A stretch of DNA of 62,990 nucleotides, counting the filler. It is 15 parts of 15 records of this genome, joined end to end, with 100 filler letters (N's around TTAATTAATTAA, not from the genome) between each part and the next. Parts side by side here need not be neighbours in the genome. Positions count along the whole stretch, not along the records: positions 16,615 to 30,028 come from SRR9188676_3538; 14 more parts are not named here. One strand, 5' to 3'. A program made the position numbers and the translations under genes. The notes below the pieces were generated by a model. It was not told where the DNA came from and searched no databases. It saw nothing but the letters and a program-made list of their open reading frames with translations. Of this stretch, positions 16,257 to 30,176 are shown piece by piece. The first letter of the stretch is position 1, and every line of letters begins with the position of its first letter.

Positions 16257-16624
16257 TAAGCGTATAGGGATCCTGGAGAAAATCAAAACTGCTTTTATAT
16301 AAGATCATGATTAGCTCGTTGGGAGAGTCCTACCCTCATTTTGAATGGGTGTTGATAGGGGAACCCCACTACCTTTGATTCCCCTCTCAATGATTCCCCT
16401 CTCAATGCCACGGAAAGTTCTTTCCCGGGGCGGATCTAAGGAAGATCTGGCTCTCTGGATGGATGGAACTCTCACTTTCCAACTGTTGAAGAACTTTCCA
16501 TCCAGTCAGATCTTNNNNNNNNNNNNNNNNNNNNNNNNNNNNNNNNNNNNNNNNNNNNTTAATTAATTAANNNNNNNNNNNNNNNNNNNNNNNNNNNNNN
16601 NNNNNNNNNNNNNNAACTCACTAA

Positions 16625-17176
16625 ATGCTCAACGAACAGGAATTAGTCAAAGCCTGCCAAAAAAACGACCGCAAAGCCCAAACTGCTTTTTATAACCTGT
16701 ATAAAAGCAAATTGATGGGTGTTTGTCGTCGTTATACTCGCACGCCCGAGGAGGCCGAAGACATCTATCAAGAAGCATTTGTGAAAATATTTAATAACAT
16801 TCATACCCTTGAAAACCCAAAGGCTGTTGGTGCTTGGGTTAGAAAGGCGGTAATTCATACGGCAATAAATTATTATCATGCGAATTTAAAATTTCAACAA
16901 AATACAGAATATGAAAATATTGTACTAAGCAACGATGATTACCCCAACCTATTATCAACACTTACAAGCGAAGAACTTCTTGCGCTCATCAATAAATTAC
17001 CCGACGGCTATCGGATGGTATTTAACCTTTATGTAATAGATGGTTATAATCATGCCGAAATCGGAGAATTGTTGGGTGTGAGCGAGAATACTTCAAAATC
17101 ACAGCTTTCAAGAGCCAAAGAGTTACTCAGAAAGCAATTAAAACAACTGGGAATTGTCAGCTATGAACGCACTTGA
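16625..17176 (+). CDS. ECF-family RNA polymerase sigma-70 factor
   Basis: 183 aa with region 2 (AEDIYQEAFVKIF) and region 4 (LPDGYRMVFNLYVIDGYNHAEIGELLGVSENTSKSQLSRAK), typical of Bacteroidota ECFs. Confidence 0.96.
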   Translation: MLNEQELVKACQKNDRKAQTAFYNLYKSKLMGVCRRYTRTPEEAEDIYQEAFVKIFNNIHTLENPKAVGAWVRKAVIHTAINYYHANLKFQQNTEYENIVLSNDDYPNLLSTLTSEELLALINKLPDGYRMVFNLYVIDGYNHAEIGELLGVSENTSKSQLSRAKELLRKQLKQLGIVSYERT

Positions 17177-18596
17177 TAACGAAAAAGACCCTTTTGAGGA
17201 TATTTTCAGAGATAAATTGTTTGATTTTGAATCTGAACCAAACGATAAACTCTGGAAATCAATAGAACCTCAACTTCCTGCTAATCCAGCAAGGAAAATA
17301 CCGTATTGGCAAATGGCAGCAGTAGCAGTTTTGTTATTGCTGACAGGCATCGGTGTGTATTTAATGCCTTCGTCAATCAGTAATGAAACCGAAAAAGCTC
17401 AGGTTGAAAAAACACAAGAAAAAGAGTTAAACAAAACCATAAATTCTAGGGATTTATTAGAAAAAAACAATAAAAACTTAAATAAAGAAAATAAATCGAC
17501 TATTATTGAGGAAAATCATTTACAAAAATCAGACAAAATAGTATCTTCAACAATTGAGAGTAATGGAGCTTCTGAAAAAGTTCAACATGAATTATCATCA
17601 GAAAGTAAAAAAACAACTTTAAAAGAACAACAAAATAGATTGAAAGTAGCAGGAGTGATACCGCCTGTTAATTCAAGTAATGAGGTTCAAGATGAACTTG
17701 CAGATGGTGCAAAGCAAAATAACTTTGTGAATCAGTATTCAAAAAAATATTCTTTGAATAAAAGCAATAAAGTAAATCGTTCTGCTGTATTCTCAGGTAA
17801 GTATGAAAATATTGATGACGAGTCGGCCGATAAACAAAGTATTGAAGCAACTAAGTATTCGGAGCAGCGTTCCACATTATTAACAAGCCTTGATGCAAAA
17901 GCGTATCATCCATTTACAAATCATTTCAGAACACCGAAAATAAAGTATCGTGGACCAAAACCTACTGTATATTTTAAAGAATCGAAGCCGGTAGAATGGT
18001 ACATAAGTGCGATGCCACTGATTAATTATTATACCATCACAGCTAATGGCAACGATGCGAATTATGTTCACAAAATTGCAGTGAATGATGAGGCAGACAG
18101 ATTAGGTTTTTATACGCAGGCAGGTTTAGTTTTTACTTTGTCGGATAGATTTAAGCTAAGAACAGGTTTGACTTTCACCAAAACCAATCATAGTTTTAGC
18201 TATCAAGTTCGTACGGATTCATTAGTGGTGCAGTCACCTGATAATACTACTGGCGTAGATGTAAGTTTTGCAGAACTCAAAAAAGTATATGCTCAGTCAG
18301 CGTATTATTTAGGTACAAAAGTTGATTTACAATATACTTTTTTAAGAGGGGAATCACTTTCTCATTATGTAAATGTAGGCGTGGAGGGAGCGTACAAAAT
18401 TAATGGAAGTAACCAGTTGAATGCCTTTGCGAATATTGCTTATGGAATTACTCGTCAGATTGGAGATCATGCCTATTTGTTTGTAGAGCCAACTTTTAGT
18501 TATTCGCTCAACGAACAAAGTGATTCAAATTCTTTGTTATTAATCAAACCCAATAAAATTGGCTTTAATATTGGGATAAACTTCAAACTAAAATGA
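17163..18596 (+). CDS. Putative anti-sigma factor with inner-membrane helix, long disordered linker and C-terminal outer-membrane beta-barrel
   Basis: Start overlaps the sigma gene end. N-terminal FEDIFRDKLFDFESEPNDKLWKSIE, TM helix WQMAAVAVLLLLTGIGVYL, about 190 aa K/N/S/E-rich linker, then amphipathic strands ending IGFNIGINFKLK. Confidence 0.8.
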   Translation: MNALDNEKDPFEDIFRDKLFDFESEPNDKLWKSIEPQLPANPARKIPYWQMAAVAVLLLLTGIGVYLMPSSISNETEKAQVEKTQEKELNKTINSRDLLEKNNKNLNKENKSTIIEENHLQKSDKIVSSTIESNGASEKVQHELSSESKKTTLKEQQNRLKVAGVIPPVNSSNEVQDELADGAKQNNFVNQYSKKYSLNKSNKVNRSAVFSGKYENIDDESADKQSIEATKYSEQRSTLLTSLDAKAYHPFTNHFRTPKIKYRGPKPTVYFKESKPVEWYISAMPLINYYTITANGNDANYVHKIAVNDEADRLGFYTQAGLVFTLSDRFKLRTGLTFTKTNHSFSYQVRTDSLVVQSPDNTTGVDVSFAELKKVYAQSAYYLGTKVDLQYTFLRGESLSHYVNVGVEGAYKINGSNQLNAFANIAYGITRQIGDHAYLFVEPTFSYSLNEQSDSNSLLLIKPNKIGFNIGINFKLK

Positions 18597-18697
18597 TAAG
18601 CGTATTTAATTTTTTCTGGAAGGGGCTAGTTTGTATTGTATTAATTGTTGTTGCATTAACGGTTGCTTTATTTAGCGGAGAAGTTAGTAAACTATAA
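18593..18697 (+). CDS. Small 34-aa single-TM protein (MISVFNFFWKGLVCIVLIVVALTVALFSGEVSKL), below the ORF-track cutoff
   Basis: ATGA overlap with the upstream stop codon, one hydrophobic helix, and it ends just before a terminator hairpin. Confidence 0.55.
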   Translation: MISVFNFFWKGLVCIVLIVVALTVALFSGEVSKL

Positions 18698-18704
18698 ACT
18701 AAGA

Positions 18705-18742
18705 TTTGAGGAGTACTCCAAAGCGGATTACTCCTCAAAAAA
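18705..18742. terminator. Intrinsic terminator between convergent operons, probably bidirectional
   Basis: Inverted repeat TTTGAGGAGTA ... TACTCCTCAAA followed by an A-run (U-tract on the minus strand). Confidence 0.8.
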
Positions 18743-18753
18743 TAAACTGTTTT

Positions 18754-18991
18754 CTATATCAATATTGTAAAATGCACATTCAACCTTGTATTCGCTTTTA
18801 ATTCTCCTCCAGATAAATCTTAGTTAATTGACTGATCTCTGATAATTCACTCCTAAAAATACGTTTTTGTAGTAGGATTCAATTCCTAAAGCACCAAAAG
18901 TAGGATATCTTCCCATTTGTGATAATGCAGTGATGTCGCTTAAATCCTTCAAATGAAGTTGTTTACCAGTTTTTTGGATAGCTTTTATCAT
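18754..18991 (-). pseudogene. Decayed remnant of the C-terminus of an outer-membrane beta-barrel 'transporter' gene downstream of mbnH
   Basis: Minus strand reads TFGALGIESYYKNVFLGVNYQRSVN*, then after a frameshift DLSGGELKANTRLNVHFTILI*. These look like terminal barrel strands with no N-terminus or signal peptide. Confidence 0.55.
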
Positions 18992-19006
18992 GATATTTTT
19001 TGTTGA

Positions 19007-20104
19007 TTAAGGAGTAAACCTTTTATCAGTCAGAAATTCTCTGTCGGTAAGTGTTCTTAAAAATACAATAATCTGAGTTTTTTCTGTAGCCGTCAGAGGA
19101 ATACCAAGTTTGCCATTTTGATTGAGAATTGGGTCAAGATTTTGGGTAGCCGTAACGGTATTCATATAATGATTGAGTACCTCATCTAACGTCTGGAATC
19201 GTCCATCGTGCATATAAGGTTTGGTGGCTTCTACATTTCTAAGACTTGGTACTTTAAACTTATTTTTATCTTCGAGCATTTCCGTTACTCGCATTCTTCC
19301 ATCATCAATTACAGGTTCGATAAATGCTTTCTTTACACCATCCACCATTCTATAAACTACTTGTTGACGTTCTGTTGGCGATAAACCGTTATTTCTGAAA
19401 CTTCCATCACTAAACAATTCTCCAGCATGGCATGAGGAACACTTTTGTTTGAATAATTCCATTCCAGCCAATTCTGTTTCGTTAAAAACTACTCCACTTT
19501 CTTTCCTCATGTATTTATCATAACGAGAATTAGCAGAGACTAAAGACAATAAAAATTGAGAAAGTGCTTTCAAAAATCGTTGTGAAGTAATTTCAGTAGT
19601 TCCAAAAGCATTTTTGAACATGACGGGATACTTTTCTGTCTTCCGCAGCTTATCCAATACGTTCGATACTTTCTCGTCCATTTCAACTGGATTTTCGATA
19701 GGAGAAATCGCAAAAAGGTCTAAATCAAATACACCACCGTCCCATCCAAAAGTTTTTTCCCAAGCCAGGTTTTGTAATGATGATGAATTTCGTAGTCCAA
19801 TCTGGTTATCAATTCCATGACTTAAATCATGCAAATGATGTGTAAATCCAAAGTCTTGGCGATGGCATTCGCCACAAGACATTGAGCCATCTCTTGAAAG
19901 AAGTCCATCATAAAATAGGCTTTTCCCTAATTCAAAACCTTCTTTTGTAATAGGATTACTTTCCAATTTATAAACTGGACTTTGAAAATTGCTAGGCTGA
20001 TAAAATAGTTTTTCAGGCTCAATTACCCCATCTGGCTGTTTTGAGCAGGAAAAAACCATCAGAAATAGAAACAGTACGCTGGTGTTTAAGAATAGATTCT
20101 TCAT
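19007..20104 (-). CDS. mbnH: MbnH-like di-heme cytochrome c peroxidase/MauG-family lipoprotein
   Basis: Lipobox VFSC, two heme motifs (SCGECH, CSSCH), LGKSLFYDGLLS, RNSSSLQNLAW, FKVPSLRNVEATKPYMHDGRF. Adjacent to mbnP. Confidence 0.9.
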   Translation of the reverse strand: MKNLFLNTSVLFLFLMVFSCSKQPDGVIEPEKLFYQPSNFQSPVYKLESNPITKEGFELGKSLFYDGLLSRDGSMSCGECHRQDFGFTHHLHDLSHGIDNQIGLRNSSSLQNLAWEKTFGWDGGVFDLDLFAISPIENPVEMDEKVSNVLDKLRKTEKYPVMFKNAFGTTEITSQRFLKALSQFLLSLVSANSRYDKYMRKESGVVFNETELAGMELFKQKCSSCHAGELFSDGSFRNNGLSPTERQQVVYRMVDGVKKAFIEPVIDDGRMRVTEMLEDKNKFKVPSLRNVEATKPYMHDGRFQTLDEVLNHYMNTVTATQNLDPILNQNGKLGIPLTATEKTQIIVFLRTLTDREFLTDKRFTP

Positions 20105-20120
20105 ATCTAATTTATTTAAT

Positions 20121-20153
20121 CTTCTACTCTTCAAATTTATTGAAGAGTAGAAG
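20121..20153. repeat. Perfect 14-bp inverted repeat in the mbnP-mbnH spacer
   Basis: CTTCTACTCTTCAA-ATTTA-TTGAAGAGTAGAAG. Confidence 0.9.
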
Positions 20154-20160
20154 TATTTTT

Positions 20161-20973
20161 TTAATTAGCATCGTTACTAACATTGTTTACACTAAACATC
20201 TGCTTGTAGTTGTCGGCAATAGGTGTAGCTGTATTTATAGTATGTACCAAATTGGTCTCAGCTAATTTTATTTGAGTAGTACCATTAAATACCTTCAAAA
20301 TATCTACAAACAAATGTACTTTTGGCGCAATATTGCTACGAACTGTAGCTGCATTTGAGAGTGGTAATGTTATCGTACGAAGATTATTGGCAGTTTTTGT
20401 CGTCATTCCTCCAAAACCTCCTACGTGCAGTTGAAATGGTCTTTTTCCTGAAGCATTTGTTGGAATAACAGAAGATGTTCCTTCAAATTTAAAGAAAATA
20501 TAACCCGAATTCCATGCCCAGTACATGCCATCATCACCATAAGAGGCTGGGTCAAGTACTCCTATTCTTTGGCTAAGGTCAGAAGTACTTCTAGTACTAT
20601 CTACACCAACTATGAAAGATACTTCTTTGTAATTTCCAGTAGGAATATCTTTTAATTCAGCTTCAAGACTACCAGCATCTGACTGTTTTATCAAGAAATA
20701 ATTATTCGGAAATTTAACAACAGTATCATCTTCTTTCTTGAACGAAACATTAGAAATAAAGTAATTCAAAGTAATAACCGTAAAATCTTCGCCAGAACTG
20801 TTTGTATAAGCTTCCGTTCCAAGTACTAAAGCCTTGTCGCCCACTTTATTATCGAAAGAAAGTGTGATTGAGTTTTTATCGTTTGGATTGATTTCATCTT
20901 CTTTACAAGAGAACAATACTATAGATGAAAACAAAAGCACAAAAAGCATGTTGATATATTGAGTATTTTTCAT
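20161..20973 (-). CDS. mbnP: MbnP-family copper-binding lipoprotein
   Basis: Lipobox LFSC, LNYFISNVSF, FIVGVDS, and the WxW motif MYWAWNSGYIFFKFEG followed by HVGGFGG. Directly upstream of an MbnH-like gene. Confidence 0.88.
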   Translation of the reverse strand: MKNTQYINMLFVLLFSSIVLFSCKEDEINPNDKNSITLSFDNKVGDKALVLGTEAYTNSSGEDFTVITLNYFISNVSFKKEDDTVVKFPNNYFLIKQSDAGSLEAELKDIPTGNYKEVSFIVGVDSTRSTSDLSQRIGVLDPASYGDDGMYWAWNSGYIFFKFEGTSSVIPTNASGKRPFQLHVGGFGGMTTKTANNLRTITLPLSNAATVRSNIAPKVHLFVDILKVFNGTTQIKLAETNLVHTINTATPIADNYKQMFSVNNVSNDAN

Positions 20974-21006
20974 TATTATTTTTTAATGTTAAACGATTTT
21001 TAAAAC

Positions 21007-22638
21007 TTACTTCACCTTCAAAAACAAAGCAAATCCAAATAAACTCACAACCAAAATACCTAAAGCTGAAAGAATCGTAACGATGTCTCGAATGTCTTTT
21101 CCTGCCCAATCCATAAACAAGAATTTATGCAATACGCCAAAAGAAAGTCCTTCTCGGCGGTCTGAATCAACGATTTGTACGGCTAAACGACTGGTGGCTG
21201 GTTCTACATAATAAGTCAAATGGTTGTCGGTTGCCAAAGCTAATTTCACTACGGGTAAACGTTTATTTACAAAACCATACTCTTTGTCGAACTTGTTTAA
21301 AAAACTTATTGAAGTAATGGCAGGCAATTCATCCTCTTCTGTTGCGTCATTATTAGTAGCTAAATCACAACAAGCTGGGTCGCCACCTGTTTTTCCTTGC
21401 TCAATAAAATGTCCGACCAATTCTTTAGCATGTTCAGTGATTCCGTTTTCTAAAAGACTTGCTGTTTGAACATCATAATATTGAATATTAGTTTTTACGA
21501 CCGTCTTTTTAGTTTCGTTAAAACGTTCGGCTTTGTCTTGTTGTTCTTTTTTCCAAGCTCCTTTTTCTTCTGGTTTTGGAAATACTTGGTAATACAATTT
21601 GTCGCCGATTTTGGCTAAAGAAAGATTTGCAACCTTAGCCCAGTCTAAAGGCAAAACTAAATTAGCCGTTTGTAAATCTGCTGTTTTGATGCTTGGTTGG
21701 TAGAAATATTTGATGCGTTCGTCTGGGGTGAGTTTTCTGGTAGCGTGATAAGCTCCTGAAAAAGCAAAAGTGAAAGTAACAAAGGCAACCCAAAGCCCAA
21801 TTTGACGGTGATATTTTCGTAAGATACCTGCTTTGTCATTGGCATTGCGTGGCTTTTTGAATTTTCCCCACATAAAACCATAAATCACCAAACCACTAAT
21901 CATTGAAATAATGATGATAGCAAGAAAGCCAATCATGATAGAGATTCTGAGCGTATTATTGGAAATTTTTGTCAAGAAATCCCAGTTGTGGAATGTTCTG
22001 AAAACCCATAAAAATGCTTTTCTGCGGTTTTCGTTGAAATTTGCTAAACGAGTTTGATCTGTTTCTACATAAATATCCATACCGTCGGCACGGTCGAATG
22101 ATACTTTCCAAACGGGCAACAGACGATTCACGTAAGCGTATTCTTCACCAAAATCTGTAATTTCTTCGATACTTTTAATGGCTGATTTTTGGTCTTCGGT
22201 AAAATAACGAGCCAAAAATTCTGCGTACTTTTTATCGCCATTTTCAAGCATTTTAGCATTGGTAGCATTGAAGTACGCCAAACGATTACTTACTCTTTTT
22301 ACCTGATAATAAGTTTGATTATTGAAGCTGACAATTCTGAAATTTTTAAATTCAGTAATTTCATTTTTGTTCAGTACTTTTTGCAAAGACAATTTGATTT
22401 GTGCTTGGTTTATCGCCTCTGGCTTTACAAATTCGTGTGCCAATTTTACTTTAAACCAATGCGACATAAAGGGGTGCATCATTCCTGAGATACACCAAAA
22501 GATTACGGGAATCATCGTAATCAAACCGATGATTCTGTGCCAACGATAAATATTTCGTTTGATTTTTTTCTTAAATCCTCCGAAGTACGATTCTTTCTGA
22601 ACCTGCTCGTCGGCTATTTCAATGATATTATTTGCCAT
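21007..22638 (-). CDS. PepSY-associated TM helix domain membrane protein
   Basis: YRWHRIIGL...WCISG, FRTFHNWDF, RKYHRQIGL...FSGAYH and GVLHKFLF are the His-bearing TM helices typical of PepSY_TM proteins encoded next to TonB receptors. Confidence 0.88.
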   Translation of the reverse strand: MANNIIEIADEQVQKESYFGGFKKKIKRNIYRWHRIIGLITMIPVIFWCISGMMHPFMSHWFKVKLAHEFVKPEAINQAQIKLSLQKVLNKNEITEFKNFRIVSFNNQTYYQVKRVSNRLAYFNATNAKMLENGDKKYAEFLARYFTEDQKSAIKSIEEITDFGEEYAYVNRLLPVWKVSFDRADGMDIYVETDQTRLANFNENRRKAFLWVFRTFHNWDFLTKISNNTLRISIMIGFLAIIIISMISGLVIYGFMWGKFKKPRNANDKAGILRKYHRQIGLWVAFVTFTFAFSGAYHATRKLTPDERIKYFYQPSIKTADLQTANLVLPLDWAKVANLSLAKIGDKLYYQVFPKPEEKGAWKKEQQDKAERFNETKKTVVKTNIQYYDVQTASLLENGITEHAKELVGHFIEQGKTGGDPACCDLATNNDATEEDELPAITSISFLNKFDKEYGFVNKRLPVVKLALATDNHLTYYVEPATSRLAVQIVDSDRREGLSFGVLHKFLFMDWAGKDIRDIVTILSALGILVVSLFGFALFLKVK

Positions 22639-22653
22639 GTTTTTTTTTATTTA

Positions 22654-22748
22654 GTGAGTGAGTGAATTGTGAATTAGTGAATTGAGAATTAGGATTATAT
22701 TAATTATTGCAGTTCATATAATCATTAATTCACAACTCACTCAATCAC
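22654..22748. repeat. Imperfect intergenic inverted repeat built from short GTGA(A/G)T-like units (REP-like)
   Basis: Left arm GTGAGTGAGTGAATTGTGAATTAGTGA; right arm TCATTAATTCACAACTCACTCAATCAC. Lies between the TonB receptor and PepSY genes. Confidence 0.65.
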
Positions 22749-22750
22749 AA

Positions 22751-25114
22751 TTATTTACCCGTAAAATTATACTGCAAGCCAATCACCACAGTGCGTGGAG
22801 CGGCTGGTGTGTAGGTTGTCCTGTCAGTTGCATTATTACCTCTTGAAGCTTGGTTGGCGTACAATTCGTCAGTCAAGTTCATGATGTTCGTAAATACTTC
22901 AATGCCTTTGAAATTATAGCCCGCACGGAAATTCAATACACTCACGCCTGAAAGTCCGAAAGCAGTTTTGTCGTTGTACATCACAGTATTTGTTTGGTTT
23001 TGATAATATGATGACAAGCGTTGCCACTCGATAGCAGCACGTAAACCTTTCGCCCATTTTGGTTTGTAAGTGATTTCAGAATTGGCAATAAACGAAGGAG
23101 CTGAAGGCATATCTTTGCCATTTACATCTTTCACCAAATCTGATGACTTGGTACTCAAAGTAAATTCTATGAACCGGTGAACGGCATTTGTTCCGCCAAA
23201 ACGAATAAACCATTCTGAGTTTGGCTTATAAGTAATGCCGTATTCAATACCTCTGTGCAAAGTTTTTCCAGCAGATTGATAGTCAGTAGAGTTGTCGGGC
23301 TGACGAATACTTAATAATTCGTTTTTACCATTCATTTCATAATAGGCAACGTCGATATAAATTTTATTATCTAAAAACGATGCCCAGCCACCCACTTCTT
23401 TGTTGTCGAAATAGGCAGGCGTTAAATTGTAGTAAAATGGATTAGCACTTCCTGTTGGTGTTTTACGGAAAACTGCTGTTAAGCCCGGAGGCGAGAAGCC
23501 TTGTGAATAATTAACATAAATTCCTTTTCCATTGCCTAAATCATAAGTCACTCCGATTTTGGGCGTTACTTGGCTGTACTCTTTTGTCCCTGTAGAGTTG
23601 TTATCCAAATAATTTAAATAATCGAATGACATACGGTCGTAACGAAGTCCTAATGAAAGTCTTAATTTTTGAATAGGTTCAAAATCAAATTGTGAGAATA
23701 AACCTGTATTGTAGATTTTAGCATCATACTTGGCTACAAAAACATCTGGATTTTCTTTTACCAAAGTATATTTTTCAACCGATTTTCCGTCTGGACGTAG
23801 TTTTGCTGAAAGGTCAATTGTATAAGAACGATACGGATTCGTTGAATAATCATAAGTACCACCGACTAATAAACGAGCTTTCAAGAAATTAAATCTTTGT
23901 GAATGCTGTGCCAAAACGCCATAAGAAGTAAATGAATTATCATTGATTTCTCCTTTAGCTGTAGTCGCTCCAGTCGTCCAGCGAATTGAATAACTTGGGT
24001 TTTGTCCGACAAAATTATTACGGTAATATGGCGTAACGGTTGTTTCTGCATTAGCATTCCAAGTATGTTCTAAAGAAATTTTGGCACGAGTCGCTAATAC
24101 TTTTCTGTAAGTAAAATCTGAAGTTGATGAATATTCTCTTTTGTAAAATGCGATAGAGTCAACGCTTCCGCCTGTTTGTGAGTAGTAATCGTTATAAGCC
24201 AAAGTACTTACCAATCGAGTTTTATCAGAAATTTTGTATTCGGCTCTGGCATTGAAAGACGTTTTGTCAAAATCACTTCTTGCTTGCCAAGAATCTACTT
24301 GTTTCGCCACATAACCGCCTAAGTACAAACCAAATTTACCAACAGTTGCACCTGCTCCGTATTGCACTCTTTTATAACCATAATTATCAAACTGAACACC
24401 TACTCTTGCAGTGGGTACGGCAGTTGGGCGTTGTGTAATAAAGTTAATCGCACCGCCAACGGCTTCGGGGCCGTACAAAGAGGAAGCTGGACCTTTTACT
24501 ACTTCTACAGATGAAACTGAAAATACATTCATTTCAATAATGGCATTGTGGTTGAAAACGCCCATCGGACGAATCGGCACGCCATCTTCTAAATACAAAA
24601 AATACGCAGAAGTCCCCATTGGTTGACGAATACCCATTCCGTGTTGTTCGTTGTTGTAGTTCATCATCACAACGCCGGGCGTTTTGTTGATGATTTCGTA
24701 CATACTTGTTGGCTTGGCATCGTTAATCAAGGTTGAAGATAATTTTGAAATCGCTATAGGAGCTTCTGTACGCAAACCTGCTTCACGATTGGCAGTTACT
24801 ACTACTTGTTGAAGATTTTCTACCGAAGGCTCTAAAGGAATATTGAGTACTTGCTCGGCTTTGTAATCCATTTCTAAAGTCTGAAAACCAATGCTTGAAA
24901 TCGAAATTTTATTGATTTTTTCCTTGGTTTTCAAGGCAAATTCACCGTTGATATTGGTAGTAGTTCCAGCGGTTGTGCCTAAAGCTTTTACAGAAGCACC
25001 TACTACGGGTTCTTTGGTGGAGCTATCAAAAATTTTACCTTTTATTAGATTTTGGGCAAAGGAAGTACTTATCGTCAAAAACATGACGAGGATAAAATTG
25101 AATATGTTTTTCAT
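22751..25114 (-). CDS. TonB-dependent outer-membrane receptor with N-terminal carboxypeptidase-regulatory-like domain
   Basis: Signal peptide, IKGKIFDSSTKEPVVGASV, VVVTANR, plug motif VEVVKGPASSLYGPEAVGGAINFIT, C-terminal PRTVVIGLQYNF. Confidence 0.95.
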   Translation of the reverse strand: MKNIFNFILVMFLTISTSFAQNLIKGKIFDSSTKEPVVGASVKALGTTAGTTTNINGEFALKTKEKINKISISSIGFQTLEMDYKAEQVLNIPLEPSVENLQQVVVTANREAGLRTEAPIAISKLSSTLINDAKPTSMYEIINKTPGVVMMNYNNEQHGMGIRQPMGTSAYFLYLEDGVPIRPMGVFNHNAIIEMNVFSVSSVEVVKGPASSLYGPEAVGGAINFITQRPTAVPTARVGVQFDNYGYKRVQYGAGATVGKFGLYLGGYVAKQVDSWQARSDFDKTSFNARAEYKISDKTRLVSTLAYNDYYSQTGGSVDSIAFYKREYSSTSDFTYRKVLATRAKISLEHTWNANAETTVTPYYRNNFVGQNPSYSIRWTTGATTAKGEINDNSFTSYGVLAQHSQRFNFLKARLLVGGTYDYSTNPYRSYTIDLSAKLRPDGKSVEKYTLVKENPDVFVAKYDAKIYNTGLFSQFDFEPIQKLRLSLGLRYDRMSFDYLNYLDNNSTGTKEYSQVTPKIGVTYDLGNGKGIYVNYSQGFSPPGLTAVFRKTPTGSANPFYYNLTPAYFDNKEVGGWASFLDNKIYIDVAYYEMNGKNELLSIRQPDNSTDYQSAGKTLHRGIEYGITYKPNSEWFIRFGGTNAVHRFIEFTLSTKSSDLVKDVNGKDMPSAPSFIANSEITYKPKWAKGLRAAIEWQRLSSYYQNQTNTVMYNDKTAFGLSGVSVLNFRAGYNFKGIEVFTNIMNLTDELYANQASRGNNATDRTTYTPAAPRTVVIGLQYNFTGK

Positions 25115-25397
25115 CTTTTTTATGAATAGCAATAGGCTACTGAGCTTTTGAATTCTTGTTTTTATGAGCTTAAATCATCCAGAAAGCTTTCTCGTATTGA
25201 AATAATACAAAGCATACATGGCTGAATCAAGCAGACATACAAAAACCAAACAGCAGCATTTTAAAGAATGACTGTGTTAATACTTGAAAGAAAATGGGGG
25301 ATTTGTTCGTTTATATATTTTGAAGCAAAAGATTAACAGGGAAGAAAGCCAGATACTTCTTCAAAAAATAAAAAACAAAACCAGAAAATTTCTGTGA

Positions 25398-25787
25398 TTA
25401 GACAGTCGGAGGATGAAAAAGAGAAGAACTAACGCTTACTGAATTTTCAGTAAGAAATGTGTAGATAGATTTTGAAGAAAGAGGTAAAAAAGCCCATTCT
25501 AATGAGAAAGTTGGCTCGGCATCAAACACTTCTTCCAAGATTTTCTTGAGAGATTGCCCTTGTTTTTGTGTTTCTTTGGTGGCATTGTCTTCTGCTACTT
25601 TTTGTAGTTTTTTAGCTAAATAACAATGACCATTACAATTCATTTGTGGTTTGAAACGGTTTTCACAAAGGTTTTGAATGATGTACTCCTTTCTTAATTC
25701 AAAATCCAAATACACCACAGGTACGAGTAGCGTTTTTACGCTAATCAACACCAACAGCAGTAAAGCTATGTAGTTTTTGGTTTTCAT
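25398..25787 (-). CDS. Conserved Bacteroidota Cys-rich small protein; candidate metal-sensing leader ORF (DUF2946/CruR-like layout)
   Basis: N-terminal hydrophobic segment, Cys cluster LCENRFKPQMNCNGHCYLAKKL, C-terminal LFHPPTV. Co-oriented about 280 nt upstream of the TonB receptor. Confidence 0.8.
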   Translation of the reverse strand: MKTKNYIALLLLVLISVKTLLVPVVYLDFELRKEYIIQNLCENRFKPQMNCNGHCYLAKKLQKVAEDNATKETQKQGQSLKKILEEVFDAEPTFSLEWAFLPLSSKSIYTFLTENSVSVSSSLFHPPTV

Positions 25788-25916
25788 GGATTTTTAAATT
25801 TCACGCAATTTACTACCAGAATCAATAAGTTGTACCCTGATGTTATTTTAAATAAAAATCAATTTAAAATATTTACTTTTGTGGATTACTAACCACAAAA
25901 ATTAATCATCAACATC

Positions 25917-26516
25917 ATGTCAGACTTTCAAACATTCTTCAAGCTTGGCTTTCAACACATTACAGATATCAATGGTTATGACCATATTTTGTTTGTTGTT
26001 GCGCTATGTGCTATTTTTCGACTCAAGGATTTAAAAAAGGTAGCTATTTTGGTTACAGCATTTACCATTGGGCACTCGCTTACTTTGGCTTTGGCAACAC
26101 TTCAAATAATTACTTATAGCTCAGAATTTATAGAATTTTTAATTCCCGTCACTATTGTCCTTACTTGTTTTATCAATCTGTTTCATAAATCTTCTGAGCG
26201 AGCTTCACAAGCAGAACATTCTTCCATTTTACGTTATCCGATGGCGATGTTATTTGGGTTAATTCATGGAATGGGTTTTTCAAATTACCTTAGAAGTTTG
26301 TTGGGAAAAGAAGAAAGTATTTGGCAACCGCTTTTGTCCTTTAATATTGGTTTAGAAATCGGACAATTACTGATTGTGTTACTTTCCTTACTGTTGAGCT
26401 CTTTATTGTTAGATATTTTCAAAGTGAAAAAACATGATTGGAATTTAATTCTATCAAGTTTAGTAGCGGGAATTGCTATTACTTTAATTTTAGGGACAGA
26501 TTTTTTGAAGGCTTAA
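25917..26516 (+). CDS. HupE/UreJ-family membrane protein (putative Ni/Co or other metal transporter)
   Basis: GFQHITDINGYDHILF, TAFTIGHSLTLAL, FGLIHGMGF, FNIGLEIGQ. Confidence 0.92.
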   Translation: MSDFQTFFKLGFQHITDINGYDHILFVVALCAIFRLKDLKKVAILVTAFTIGHSLTLALATLQIITYSSEFIEFLIPVTIVLTCFINLFHKSSERASQAEHSSILRYPMAMLFGLIHGMGFSNYLRSLLGKEESIWQPLLSFNIGLEIGQLLIVLLSLLLSSLLLDIFKVKKHDWNLILSSLVAGIAITLILGTDFLKA

Positions 26517-26517
26517 A

Positions 26518-26557
26518 TAGGTATTTTCCTCAGCTATTACGCTGAAGAAAATACCTA
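26518..26557. terminator. Hairpin terminator between convergent hupE/ureJ and histidine kinase genes
   Basis: TAGGTATTTTC-CTCAGC-TATTAC-GCTGAA-GAAAATACCTA. Confidence 0.75.
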
Positions 26558-26564
26558 AATCATT

Positions 26565-27620
26565 TTATACTACAGGATTGATTGAGTCTATTTTATTAGG
26601 AATGATGATTTTAAAAGTAGTTCCTTGTCCTTCGATACTCTCAAAAAAGATTCTCCCTCCAAGTTTTTCGATGGTATATCTTAATGTATAAAGTCCAATT
26701 CCTGTGCCATGTGCTTGACTAGTAGCACGATAGAATAGCTTGAAAATGTTTTTTTGCAATTCCTTTTTGATGCCAATTCCATTGTCTGACAAAATAATTT
26801 TTACAAATTCCTTATCGCCTGAAATATTTATTTTTAAGGATGAATCATCTCTTTCAATATTTCTGTATTTGATTGCATTATCAATGATGTTCTGAAATAA
26901 TGAAGTAATGATGGATTTATCAAAGTAAAAATCAAAAGGTAAATCTATTATTTCTTCAAAATGTTGAGCAGAATAACCTTCAACACTGGCTAGAGATTTT
27001 TTTACTTCATCAATAATAGTCCTGAAATCAATTAATTCAAAATGCGGAATCTCTTTTTGGATTTTGAGTGATTTGTTTACTTGCTCTACCGTTTCTAATA
27101 ATCTACTAACACTTTCATTAATCAGTCCGCAATAGCTTTTTAGGGTATCAATATCAACGGGGTCTTCTTGAAGTGCCATTTTTGTTAATTCCAATACACT
27201 TGTCATTGGGCTTTTAATATCGTGCGATAATCTGTACGAAAATACTTCTAAAGATTCTATCGTATTTCTATATTCGGTAATATTAGAAATTGCCACACCA
27301 ACACCATTACCAACTTTGAAGGCTTTTACTCTGTTGTACTGATTTCCATAAATTGGGCTTCCAATAATTTCTTCAATAATAATGGGTTTACCAGTAAGTA
27401 TTACTTCATTGTATTTTTTTACTAATCCTTTTTCTTCAGCGTTAGGAGCTACTTCTAAAATATGTTTTCCAACGAAAGCATCTCGCTCAAGATGATAAAA
27501 TTTAAGTAAGGTTTCATTTGCATCTATAACATTCAGTTCACTGTCAAATAGAATAAAATGAAGCTCTGCATTATCAAAAAAAGCAGAGCGAAGAGTTTGT
27601 TGTTCATTTTCCGTTATCAT
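26565..27620 (-). CDS. Cytoplasmic PAS-domain sensor histidine kinase
   Basis: N-terminal PAS-like region, H-box SHDIKSPM, N-box NIIDNAIKY, G1 DNGIGI, G2 GTGIGLY. No TM segment. Confidence 0.93.
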   Translation of the reverse strand: MITENEQQTLRSAFFDNAELHFILFDSELNVIDANETLLKFYHLERDAFVGKHILEVAPNAEEKGLVKKYNEVILTGKPIIIEEIIGSPIYGNQYNRVKAFKVGNGVGVAISNITEYRNTIESLEVFSYRLSHDIKSPMTSVLELTKMALQEDPVDIDTLKSYCGLINESVSRLLETVEQVNKSLKIQKEIPHFELIDFRTIIDEVKKSLASVEGYSAQHFEEIIDLPFDFYFDKSIITSLFQNIIDNAIKYRNIERDDSSLKINISGDKEFVKIILSDNGIGIKKELQKNIFKLFYRATSQAHGTGIGLYTLRYTIEKLGGRIFFESIEGQGTTFKIIIPNKIDSINPVV

Positions 27621-27986
27621 AATTAATTAATTAATTTGGATTTAGTTATTTTATTCGAATTTGGATAGTGTAGAAATTACTTTCCAAAGCCTTTTTTGTT
27701 TAAGTTATGATTTCTCAATCAAATTATCTCAATAAAAATGGATGAAATTTTTATTAATTTTCATTGAAAATATTAGAGATATTTCATCATCCTATATTTA
27801 TGTGTTTTTATGTTTTTTGCTTATCTTGAAATATTTATATTGCTTTTCACTTAGAATTTCTGGCAAACAAAATAACTGTTGAGATATATATAAAATATCT
27901 TTATATTGTATTTGTATTAGTTTATGAAGTAATAAAAGCAAATTAATAGTAATTCAACCTTCTTCCCATTATCATTAAATTAGTTT

Positions 27987-29915
27987 ATGTTTCAAAAAGT
28001 ATTTGTGTTGATATTGTTTTCTTTGTTATTACCTTTCTTGGTTTTTTCTCAACAAAAAAAACTTGACCAACTGCTTTCGCAATGGAAGAAGTTAAGTGTT
28101 TCTGCCCAACAGAAATCAGATACAACTACAATCAATTTATTGAATACCATTGCAAACGAGTACATGCAAACGGTTTCCGACAGTGCTTTTATTTTTTCAG
28201 AGAAAGCTTTAGCATTATCCAAATCGCTAAAATATGATAAAGGAAGTTCTGTTGCTTATGTCAATATTGGTAAAATGCACTACATGAAAGGCAATTACGA
28301 CTTGTCTTTAAACTATATACTTACTTCATTAAATATCAGTAATAAAAGTAATGATAAAGCGGGAGTAGCAGGGGCGTCCAATGTAATTGGGTTGATTTAC
28401 CTTGCCCAGAAAAAAACTAATCTAGCCCTAGCAGAATTCCTAAAGGCGGCAAAAATCAATACCAATATCAACAATCAAACAAGATTATCAGCTAATTACT
28501 TTAATGTTGCTTTGACTTATTTAGAGGCAAAATCAGATAGTGCTCTTCATTACTTTTTACTGTCTAAATCAATCAGCACAAAAATCCACGACGAGCATTT
28601 GATTGCGATGGCAAACAATAGACTCGGCGATTACTTTTTACAAAAATCACAAACACATAAAGCAATTGTTTATTATTCTTCTGTGCTAAAGAATAAAAAA
28701 TATCAAAACGATTGGGAGAATAGTTTCGCTTATACTGGTCTGGCAAAATGTTATTATAAGCAAGGCAAGTTTAAAGAAGCAAGTATCAATAGTGGAAAAG
28801 GGCTTTCTTTAGCCCAAAAAAATAATACTAAATGGGATATTGAACAAGCTTTAAGAGTATTGCACGAATCCTATAGCGCACTTGGCGACTCAAAAAATGC
28901 TTATAAATATCTTTTGATGGATAAAATTTATAGCGATAGTTTATTTGATGAATCAAAAGAAAAGGAAATAAATGCACTCAACTTAAAGCAACAACAAGCT
29001 GAAAACGAAGTGTTGATTAAGAAAAATCAGATTGCGGAGGAGAAAGAAGCCACTAGCCAAATGGTAACCCTCATCATTATACTGATTGCTTTATTCTTAA
29101 TGATTATTACCTTGATTACTTTTAGAAATGCTAAGAGGAATAAAAAATTATACCAAGCACTCCAGAAAAAAACAGATTTCATCGCCTCTCAGAATGAATT
29201 AATTGAGCAAAAAAATGAAGAGCTTAATCATTCCAATCAAACAAAAGATAGATTGTTTTCTATCATTGGACATGATTTAAGAGGGCCATTTGCTACGATG
29301 CTTGGGGCATTAGAATTATTTAAGACAGGAGAATTGGAAGAAGAAGATAAACAAATGATGCTTGATAGAATTTTAGAGCAAATGACTGTTACTTCTGCCA
29401 TGTTAGAAAACCTATTGGCTTGGGCAAATAGCCAGCGAGAAGGTTTGAAAACGCAATCAATAGACTTGTCTTTAACAGGAATTATCAATGAAATACTTGG
29501 TGTTTTTGTGATGGTGGCGGGTGAAAAAAACATTCAGCTTATTCATCATTTTGAAGAACCTCTATCAATTAAAGGCGACCCCGATCAAATTCGAATACTC
29601 TTCCAAAATTTAGTAGCTAATGCCATTAAATTTACCAAACCCAAAGGTAAAATCGTAATTAGTTATGCTGTGAGCGATACTGCTATTAAAGTTTCTATCA
29701 AAGATGATGGCGTTGGGATGTCGGAAGAGAAATTGAAATTGATTTTTCAAGAATCTGGGAAAAGTATTTCAACTTATGGTACTAAAAAAGAAAAAGGCAT
29801 TGGCATTGGCTTAATGCTTGTGAAAAAATTTGTAGAACTAAACAATGCCACCATTGCTGTGAAAAGTAAAGAAAAAGAAGGAACAGAATTTGTGGTAGAG
29901 TTTAGTAGAATTTAA
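27987..29915 (+). CDS. TPR-repeat membrane sensor histidine kinase
   Basis: Signal peptide, periplasmic TPR-like helices, one TM helix, H-box IIGHDLRGPF, NLVANAIKF, DDGVGM, GIGIGL. Confidence 0.93.
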   Translation: MFQKVFVLILFSLLLPFLVFSQQKKLDQLLSQWKKLSVSAQQKSDTTTINLLNTIANEYMQTVSDSAFIFSEKALALSKSLKYDKGSSVAYVNIGKMHYMKGNYDLSLNYILTSLNISNKSNDKAGVAGASNVIGLIYLAQKKTNLALAEFLKAAKINTNINNQTRLSANYFNVALTYLEAKSDSALHYFLLSKSISTKIHDEHLIAMANNRLGDYFLQKSQTHKAIVYYSSVLKNKKYQNDWENSFAYTGLAKCYYKQGKFKEASINSGKGLSLAQKNNTKWDIEQALRVLHESYSALGDSKNAYKYLLMDKIYSDSLFDESKEKEINALNLKQQQAENEVLIKKNQIAEEKEATSQMVTLIIILIALFLMIITLITFRNAKRNKKLYQALQKKTDFIASQNELIEQKNEELNHSNQTKDRLFSIIGHDLRGPFATMLGALELFKTGELEEEDKQMMLDRILEQMTVTSAMLENLLAWANSQREGLKTQSIDLSLTGIINEILGVFVMVAGEKNIQLIHHFEEPLSIKGDPDQIRILFQNLVANAIKFTKPKGKIVISYAVSDTAIKVSIKDDGVGMSEEKLKLIFQESGKSISTYGTKKEKGIGIGLMLVKKFVELNNATIAVKSKEKEGTEFVVEFSRI

Positions 29916-30176
29916 TGCTCATCACACAACTTTATACAATTTCATTATTGCAGTTAAAATCATTTCAATAGTTTCTAAAGGTAAATCTTTGTTTGAGTCA
30001 AAAAGCATAATTTTCATTTTTGAACGCTNNNNNNNNNNNNNNNNNNNNNNNNNNNNNNNNNNNNNNNNNNNNTTAATTAATTAANNNNNNNNNNNNNNNN
30101 NNNNNNNNNNNNNNNNNNNNNNNNNNNNACACATATACGATGGAAATGGGCTCGAATATGTTTCGAAGAAACAGAC

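Follow-up and report, generated by a model that had tools for sequence, protein, structure and literature searches.

What is the role of a small open reading frame (ORF), matched by no model of the protein-family databases, that stands in front of the copper-uptake genes of an Arcicella bacterium? The locus lies in a stretch of DNA of 62,990 nucleotides (hereafter the window, by which we mean the whole stretch that was analysed; all coordinates are counted along it), within a piece at positions 16615-30028 that is Arcicella DNA, with a GC content of 0.31-0.39, and is the home of both the small ORF and the copper cluster. The small ORF is best explained as the leader gene of a copper-uptake operon, the order being small ORF, TonB-dependent receptor, PepSY_TM membrane protein, MbnP and MbnH. 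By analogy with known leader peptides we propose, at a probability of roughly 0.55, that it acts in cis as a copper-responsive leader on which the ribosome stalls. The argument starts from what can be observed directly, namely the anatomy, conservation, gene order and copper context of the family to which the small ORF belongs. The parts of the small ORF and of the RNA that follows it are these:

25398..25787, minus strand: small ORF of 129 residues, belonging to a large Bacteroidota family without a name, and a candidate leader or sensor peptide.
25707..25769, minus strand: N-terminal hydrophobic segment, residues 7-27 (from the sequence and the AlphaFold2 helices).
25623..25667, minus strand: Cys cluster C41-x9-C51-x-G53-x-C55, a candidate for metal binding, whose three Cys and one Gly are the same in 79 of 79 homologues.
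25422..25622, minus strand: linker, residues 56-122, comprising a polar helix (54-88) and then variable coil (from alignments and AlphaFold2).
25407..25421, minus strand: L123-F-H-P-P127 tail, candidate arrest motif, with P126 and P127 invariant and two codons to the stop.
25115..25397, minus strand: leader of 283 nucleotides (nt), from the small-ORF stop to the ATG of the TonB receptor (from the sequence; no near-threshold Rfam match).
25338..25397, minus strand: U-rich, G-poor tract directly 3' of the stop (T 0.52, pyrimidines 0.67).

A first-pass annotation of the window had described a 129-residue ORF with an N-terminal export or membrane segment, a C-x9-C-NGH-C cluster and the residues LFHPP two positions before the stop, and in each of these particulars it was right. 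Lys2 and Lys4 precede the 21-residue hydrophobic stretch, which is probably a signal anchor with its N-terminus inside, a topology predicted from this arrangement. The Cys cluster (residues 41-55) reads C41-x9-C51-N-G-H-C55 and belongs to a well-conserved block, Y26-LDFELRK-YI-NLCENRFKP-x3-CNGxCYLAK, that is followed by a polar and then a variable stretch; after P127 come T, V and TAA. AlphaFold2, supplied with an alignment of 79 rows, gave a model with a mean predicted local distance difference test score (pLDDT) of 85.7 and with helices at residues 2-19, 21-31, 33-40 and 54-88, the first two of them above 90. Residues 1-88 are modelled confidently (pLDDT >86) and residues 89-129 as coil (pLDDT 63-76), a division that is one of the grounds for reading the small ORF as a cis-acting leader. 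A Foldseek search of the model against the PDB returned no match at E<=10.

The family is large. The window protein and, among the matches listed, 79 diverse relatives are covered by no model of Pfam or of NCBIfam, and yet 166 of 186 candidates proved to be close homologues of the window protein, and an exhaustive search found 3669 representative clusters at E<=1e-3 (207 at E<=1e-10). A profile of the 79 members matches 146 of 401 evenly drawn Bacteroidota genomes, and a scan of a species collection with a narrower alignment confirmed at least 583 members among 600 stretches; the 80 loci kept from that scan include Chitinophaga, Pedobacter, Mucilaginibacter, Flavobacterium, Chryseobacterium, Dyadobacter, Pontibacter, Aquirufa and others. 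Longer or fused relatives are rare: by a weak test, one was seen in 8000 candidates, in which the family part was still C-terminal and the N-terminal extension implausible.

Conservation within the family is concentrated at two places. In the 79 diverse members, which are 23-56% identical to the window protein, the sole invariant columns are C41, C51, G53, C55, P126 and P127, with I36, L40, N43, P47, L57 and F124 kept in at least 90%. The pattern Cx9CxGxC is present in 263 of 268 family proteins and is followed by a later PP in 252 of those 263. With six columns invariant in 79 sequences, and both motifs present in most of the 268, the motifs are far beyond chance. The constancy of the spacing between the Cys cluster and the PP pair, which the first-pass annotation had made a check on its proposal, is borne out: the last Cys and PP are 63-72 residues apart in 251 of the 252 proteins (51 in the remaining one) and 62-70 in the even genome sample, and both the alignment of 79 and the set of 252 show a linker that is held in length while free in sequence. 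After the PP pair, 221 of the 252 proteins have 1-4 residues, 30 have 5-9 and one has 21. The earlier idea of an HPP motif stood in part, in that PP is invariant in 79 of 79 members but the His is not fixed; the residue directly before PP is H in 171, R in 38, K in 18 and Q in 12 of the 252 (together 239), and the residue before that is F in 200. The consensus tail across the family is thus [ILV]-F-[HRKQ]-P-P. The finding that only three Cys, one Gly and two Pro are invariant, on either side of a linker fixed in length, fits a sensor joined to an arrest tail.

It can be asked whether such a protein might simply be stable, that is, a bitopic membrane or periplasmic copper-binding protein that works in trans, as a chaperone or accessory subunit, with the TonB receptor, the PepSY_TM protein or MbnP. 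The PP end would then merely cap or protect a flexible tail, or dock to a partner. This explanation accommodates the strong conservation of residues 26-58, the confident model of residues 1-88, the three invariant cysteines, which would make an apt Cu(I) site, the frequency of small accessory proteins in operons, and the result that no conserved RNA element was found. We nevertheless regard it as doubtful. A linker that is constrained in length only is not what it would lead one to expect, and further difficulties arise from the gene order.

The genes around the family were examined in 80 loci from 80 genomes, an even sample of the phylum that contains 83 family ORFs. The next gene on the 3' side is co-directional with the family ORF in all 83 cases, as compared with 291 of 399 ordinary adjacent pairs in the same loci, and the spacer between the two is 35-582 nt long (median 107, n=83). 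Pfam searches with the first <=300 residues of the next gene (E<=1e-4) identified it as follows:

Plug (TonB receptor): 33 of 83.
MbnP: 21 of 83.
YtkA-like: 9 of 83.
Phenol_MetA_deg: 4 of 83.
YHS: 3 of 83.
AraC-type: 1 of 83.
No family at E<=1e-4: 12 of 83.

The second downstream co-directional gene (n=72) is CCP_MauG in 20 cases, PepSY_TM in 10, Plug in 10, SCO1/SenC in six, AhpC-TSA in four and Redoxin in three. The position in front of metal-transport genes that the first-pass annotation had looked for is therefore general, usually before a TonB receptor, MbnP, YtkA or YHS gene. A second set of 68 loci, biased towards the Spirosomataceae, gave a co-directional next gene in 61 of 61 cases and two recurrent modules, the one being leader, TonB receptor and then PepSY_TM or a BNR protein, the other leader, MbnP, MbnH and a 306-residue protein. 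These observations favour a leader acting in cis, because every one of the 83 family ORFs is followed, at least 35 nt on, by a co-directional gene, and because the downstream genes are copper-linked and make up almost the list known from DUF2946 operons. A stable protein, by comparison, would have to change its partner (TonB receptor 33, MbnP 21, YtkA 9 and YHS 3 of 83) while its gene always remained 5' of that partner, on the same strand and at least 35 nt away.

Two proteins without a Pfam family recur in the Spirosomataceae-biased set. One, of about 306 residues, is the regular third gene after MbnP-MbnH, with 23 copies in the 68 loci (e.g. L022:8646-9566, plus strand); the other, of about 146 residues, lies between leader and TonB receptor in Runella, with 13 copies (e.g. 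L024:6479-6919, plus strand).

In the window itself, the neighbours of the small ORF are these:

22751..25114, minus strand: TonB-dependent receptor with CarboxypepD_reg, Plug and beta-barrel domains (Pfam and NCBIfam).
21007..22638, minus strand: PepSY_TM membrane protein (PF03929, E 3.3e-15).
20161..20973, minus strand: MbnP (PF20243, E 4.5e-53).
19007..20134, minus strand: MbnH-like di-haem cytochrome c peroxidase, CCP_MauG (PF03150, E 3e-51).
25917..26516, plus strand: HupE/UreJ_2 metal-transport membrane protein, divergent from the operon (PF13795, E 2.8e-49).

Here MbnP follows PepSY_TM after 33 nt, and the window holds a single copy of the family and no second. A. rosea has two copies. 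The small ORF of the window is 100% identical to its counterparts in A. rosea DSM 21163 and A. lustrica; the second A. rosea copy (L208:7603-7986, minus strand, which is G001:C12:159102-159485) is 35% identical to the window protein, ends G-I-F-R-P-P-Q-F, again has a T-rich tract on its 3' side, and lies directly before an MbnP-MbnH pair that is separate from the receptor operon. There is, in other words, one leader per transcription unit. That each separated unit has a leader of its own, as the comparison of A. rosea with the window indicates, supports action in cis; for a stable protein working in trans, a divergent copy in each separated unit is hard to account for.

RNA-seq libraries provide a further observation. 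Contigs from three runs of one study (X4, X5 and X7) cover parts of the small ORF, at 25301-25782, 25415-25787 and 25341-25500. This coverage, which shows presence in RNA libraries only, is counted among the grounds for the leader reading. Where the contigs run past the small ORF they stop 57-97 nt into the leader, and none lies over the TonB receptor gene, missing cover being no evidence of termination. Two of them stop within 5 nt of the ATG of the small ORF (25782 and 25787); as contigs cannot show transcript ends, a very short 5' untranslated region is only a lead.

Some other features of the window may be noted here. A 10-bp inverted repeat at 25875-25902, with arms of the type TTTTGTGG / CCACAAAA and an 8-nt loop, was flagged by a terminator scan; it sits in the promoter region from which the small ORF and the HupE/UreJ gene diverge, and may serve a metal regulator as operator. 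At the other end of the copper cluster, and convergent with its MbnH end, a gene for an extracytoplasmic function (ECF)-type sigma factor (16625-17176, plus strand) overlaps the start of a 480-residue ORF (17154-18596, plus strand) that has no Pfam family and is possibly an anti-sigma factor; the same pair adjoins MbnH in A. rosea (L208:3068-5039). Paired runs of 44 N separate the pieces of the window, of which only the one at 16615-30028 is Arcicella; the others have a GC content of 0.42-0.50 and eukaryotic-looking ORFs, with Ser/Pro-rich low-complexity frames after 30129.

A second family has a tail of the same kind. The nearest named clusters to the window family in the ESM Atlas are DUF6660 and DUF6769, at scores of 0.88-0.89 that are to be taken as leads only. 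DUF6660 (PF20365) was found in 37 of 201 sampled Bacteroidota genomes, and also in A. rosea (G001:C1:589934-590128). Its members are small and N-terminally hydrophobic, carry an invariant C..CSPFCxCxCC cluster (L193-L207, e.g. L194:1495-1806, minus strand) and end I-W-Q-P-P-[KQR], or more broadly [IL]-[WL]-[QE]-P-P, 1-4 residues before the stop. In an hhalign comparison with the window family only the last 26 columns align (probability 61.8%, E 7.7e-5) and the Cys domains do not; PF20365 itself gave no match among those listed for the 79 window-family members. A long co-directional ORF follows DUF6660 after 91-314 nt in 13 of 13 loci, and the three that were tested are all CusA/CzcA-type efflux pumps; a hairpin often lies 5-15 nt after the DUF6660 stop. 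Both families thus combine a hydrophobic N-terminus, an invariant Cys cluster and a PP tail near the stop with a position before metal transport genes, whereas DUF6660 differs in its Cys domain, in a spacing of about 40 residues, in preceding efflux rather than uptake genes and in the hairpins after its stop. Since a common tail is found on two Cys domains before metal transport genes, it looks like a portable arrest module, and the sharing of this module argues for the leader reading of the window family. The presence of the same tail on the unrelated Cys domain of DUF6660, before efflux pumps, is again awkward for a stable accessory protein. A literature search found no published function for DUF6660; it may be a second, efflux-side stalling leader. 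A member of the other family named by the ESM Atlas, DUF6769 (L190), ends G-L-R-A-P-P-I-V.

The RNA between the small ORF and the receptor gene is less informative than the peptide. The first-pass annotation had put the pyrimidine-rich leader at about 280 nt; it measures 283 nt up to the conserved ATG at 25114, or 265 nt if counted to the in-frame TTG that lies upstream of it at 25132, with T at 0.40 and pyrimidines at 0.565 overall (0.67 in the first 60 nt). The CAGAA/TTCTG stem that had also been noticed is present in the window leader, but three of five other Arcicella loci lack it. The window leader folds somewhat better than shuffled sequences do (z -3.06), a value given no weight because the leaders of relatives diverge. 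Searches of the locus against Rfam gave matches at chance level only (E 0.19-0.83). The composition of the first 30 nt after the stop was compared between the 83 family spacers and 148 control intergenic spacers by Mann-Whitney tests, the p values of which treat related genomes as independent:

T, first 30 nt: family 0.394, control 0.310 (p 2.5e-7).
G, first 30 nt: family 0.133, control 0.172 (p 7.7e-4).
Pyrimidines, first 30 nt: family 0.584, control 0.479 (p 2.5e-10).

This U-rich, G-poor stretch, the sole family-wide feature of the leader RNA, is a further reason to favour a cis leader, and a G-poor pyrimidine tract would suit the loading of Rho, by analogy with CruR. With no family-wide RNA structure found, the information seems to reside in the peptide and in the position of the ribosome, rather than in a riboswitch-like RNA.

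The same observations admit another form of cis action, in which translation of the small ORF matters, through coupling or through protection from Rho or nucleases, but copper is not sensed; the PP pair would only slow termination and the copper response would come from a transcription factor at the promoter. The inverted repeat at 25875-25902 in the divergent promoter and the nearby ECF sigma factor gene agree with this, and the spacer and its U-rich tract are the only conserved nucleic-acid features. We think it improbable, as it leaves without a role the invariant cluster of three cysteines at a fixed distance from PP, and as the DUF2946 precedents, in the parts of those reports available to us, require the Cys motif for the copper response.

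Several findings weigh against a copper-responsive stalling leader and should be set out together. Eleven of the 263 proteins with the Cys motif have no later PP; some of these are truncated, and three read HSP, HPL and HHP. The tail differs from known arrest motifs, with Phe and His/Arg/Lys/Gln at the positions of the Arg and the small residue of RAPP. Conservation of residues 26-58 far exceeds that in DUF2946 and, together with the confident model of residues 1-88, would also fit a stable folded membrane protein. The upstream gene is co-directional in 54 of 82 cases, with a gap of 1-5 nt in six, and hence the family ORF often lies within a run of genes, where it typically heads a module. At the RNA level, the non-independence of the genomes behind the compositional p values has to be borne in mind, and the Arcicella leaders diverge, with 100-nt indels, although the last codons and the first ~45 nt stay similar. 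Folding of the first 70 nt after the stop is no stronger than in controls (z -1.59 versus -1.66, p=0.21), and terminator-like sites occur in 31 of 83 family spacers and 41 of 148 controls, without clear enrichment. An intrinsic terminator was rejected as a feature of the family, the number of sites being above that in shuffles (mean 9.75) but not clearly above controls.

We nevertheless prefer the copper-responsive stalling leader, for which the following mechanism can be envisaged. The peptide would be inserted into the membrane co-translationally by its N-terminal anchor, and the ribosome would pause or arrest at the [ILV]-F-[HRKQ]-P-P codons, 1-9 codons ahead of the stop. At that point the last ~40 residues would occupy the exit tunnel; the coil of residues 89-129 (41 residues) corresponds approximately to the content of the tunnel, and the polar helix 54-88 could span the translocon. 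This geometry would place the three-Cys cluster, 63-72 residues upstream of PP, outside the ribosome and probably at the periplasmic face of the translocon. Copper binding or disulfide formation at the cluster would alter the dwell time of the ribosome, and a ribosome lying over the stop and the start of the U-rich leader would decide whether transcription or translation goes on into the transport genes. As the downstream genes serve uptake, expression is likely when copper is scarce. In this scheme the arrest, copper as the ligand, the membrane topology, whether copper raises or lowers expression, and the step that follows downstream, be it Rho-type termination or another, are proposed on the model of the known leaders.

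Taken jointly with DUF6660, the family can be given a broader but more tentative interpretation, one that we offer as possible and do not press. The Bacteroidota would have a non-RAPP arrest module of their own, [ILV]-[FW]-[HQRK]-P-P, joined to at least two unrelated Cys-cluster sensors, of which the window family would serve copper-uptake operons (TonB receptor/PepSY_TM, MbnPH) and DUF6660 the CusA/CzcA efflux operons; the spacer of 63-72 residues would let the nascent chain read periplasmic copper while the tail is still in the ribosome. If so, this would be a phylum-wide transmembrane nascent-chain metal sensor, found in about one-third of Bacteroidota genomes. A literature search found no description of the family or of an F-H-P-P type motif in main texts, although supplements might list Bacteroidota cases. 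Post-transcriptional control of copper genes by arrest peptides has so far been shown only for DUF2946 proteins of Proteobacteria. Were the stalling leader proved correct, it would add a new motif that arrests ribosomes in a phylum where translation is not the same as in E. coli, give an annotation to thousands of hypothetical genes, and make it simple to recognise operons for copper uptake (TonB receptor, PepSY_TM, MbnPH) in Bacteroidota of the environment and of hosts.

How the family relates to known systems can be judged from the published accounts, in the parts of them that were available. DUF2946 proteins have an export signal, and their CXXC motif is separated by 45 +/- 1-2 residues from a RAPP that lies three residues from the C-terminus (Roy et al. 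2022, PMC9426467). The operons in which they come first, ahead of long spacers, encode TonB receptors, PepSY_TM, MbnPH, ScoC, PCuAC, YcnI, CopC and AhpC, and the phyla given are Proteobacteria with a few Planctomycetes, Firmicutes and Deinococcus (PMC9426467). In CruR of Bordetella pertussis (Bp2923), a stall of the ribosome at RAPP blocks Rho, and copper relieves the stall (PMC9426467); in CutF of Rhodobacter capsulatus, the nascent exported chain senses periplasmic copper and stalls at PPP, which melts a stem-loop (10.1101/2025.02.05.636593). The outline of this layout and of its cis regulation in the first-pass annotation agrees with these sources, and CruR and CutF provide the precedent for cis control of copper genes by stalling on which the leader reading partly depends.

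The window family and CruR share a small size, export (predicted for the window family) and a Cys motif that keeps a constant distance from x-x-P-P, itself placed two to three residues before the stop. The predicted N-in anchor (hydrophobic residues 7-27, helices 2-31) corresponds to the DUF2946 export signal, and the ORF likewise comes first, with a long spacer, before a copper-linked TonB receptor and PepSY_TM gene or MbnPH, related operons having MbnPH, SCO1 and AhpC. In contrast, it has Cx9CxGxC instead of CXXC and [ILV]F[HRKQ]PP instead of RAPP, the PP pair standing at the same place with F and H/R/K/Q before it; the spacing is fixed at 63-72 residues (62-70 in the even genome sample) as against 45 +/- 2; and the Bacteroidota are not among the phyla named in the available text of PMC9426467. 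What would be new in comparison with the known copper arrest leaders, as far as sequences can tell, are the motifs, the longer spacing and the phylum.

Could the family none the less be a highly divergent true member of DUF2946? The shared architecture and operon context would agree with this, as would the label DUF2946-like on the nearest named ESM Atlas clusters (0.88-0.89, leads only). Yet PF11162 has no match to the window protein at E<=0.1 and, among the 25 of 39 matching families that were listed, none to any of the 79 members at E<=1; hhalign of the family against eight Bacteroidota DUF2946-like proteins gives a probability of 1.8%; the Cys motif, the tail and the spacing all differ; and genuine DUF2946-like genes are present as separate genes in the same genomes. 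Membership is thus very improbable. With no PF11162 match, no profile similarity and a different Cys motif, tail and spacing, the family is an analogue of DUF2946 and not a member, just as the first-pass annotation had supposed in proposing a Bacteroidota analogue with another Cys motif.

Histidine-rich small ORFs of Bacteroidota with a DCxxC motif form another group, ending S-R-A-P-P or H-R-G-P-P (L101-L108, e.g. L104:1390-1776, plus strand). PF11162 matches these weakly, in 30 of 401 genomes at E<=0.01 with four over the cut-off, and their genes are separate from those of the window family.

The likeness to CutF lies in the proposed logic, in which a nascent exported chain would sense copper through cysteines and a C-terminal proline motif would hold the ribosome. 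CutF, as described in the available text, differs in turning on a detoxifying oxidase by way of a stem-loop over the ribosome-binding site, whereas the window family would act on uptake genes, and its 83 spacers showed no conserved stem-loop. The wider class of RAPP/RGPP peptides (ApdA, ApdP and SecM-like) shares with the family a C-terminal x-x-P-P on small secreted or membrane proteins. In many phyla, RAPP/RGPP small proteins are reported to precede TonB, PepSY and copper genes, as the window family does in its own, but for the Bacteroidota the survey of such upstream ORFs, in its accessible part, gives none ahead of genes related to copper (Fujiwara et al. EMBO J 2025, PMC12992588), a gap that the window family could fill. 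According to the same source, the Arg of RAPP is irreplaceable and the second position tolerates small residues only; the window family has Phe in place of the defining Arg and His, Arg, Lys or Gln in place of the small residue, and in this it departs from the class. With the still broader group of polyproline XPPX sequences, defined by two consecutive Pro codons, the family does agree, its P126-P127 pair being invariant.

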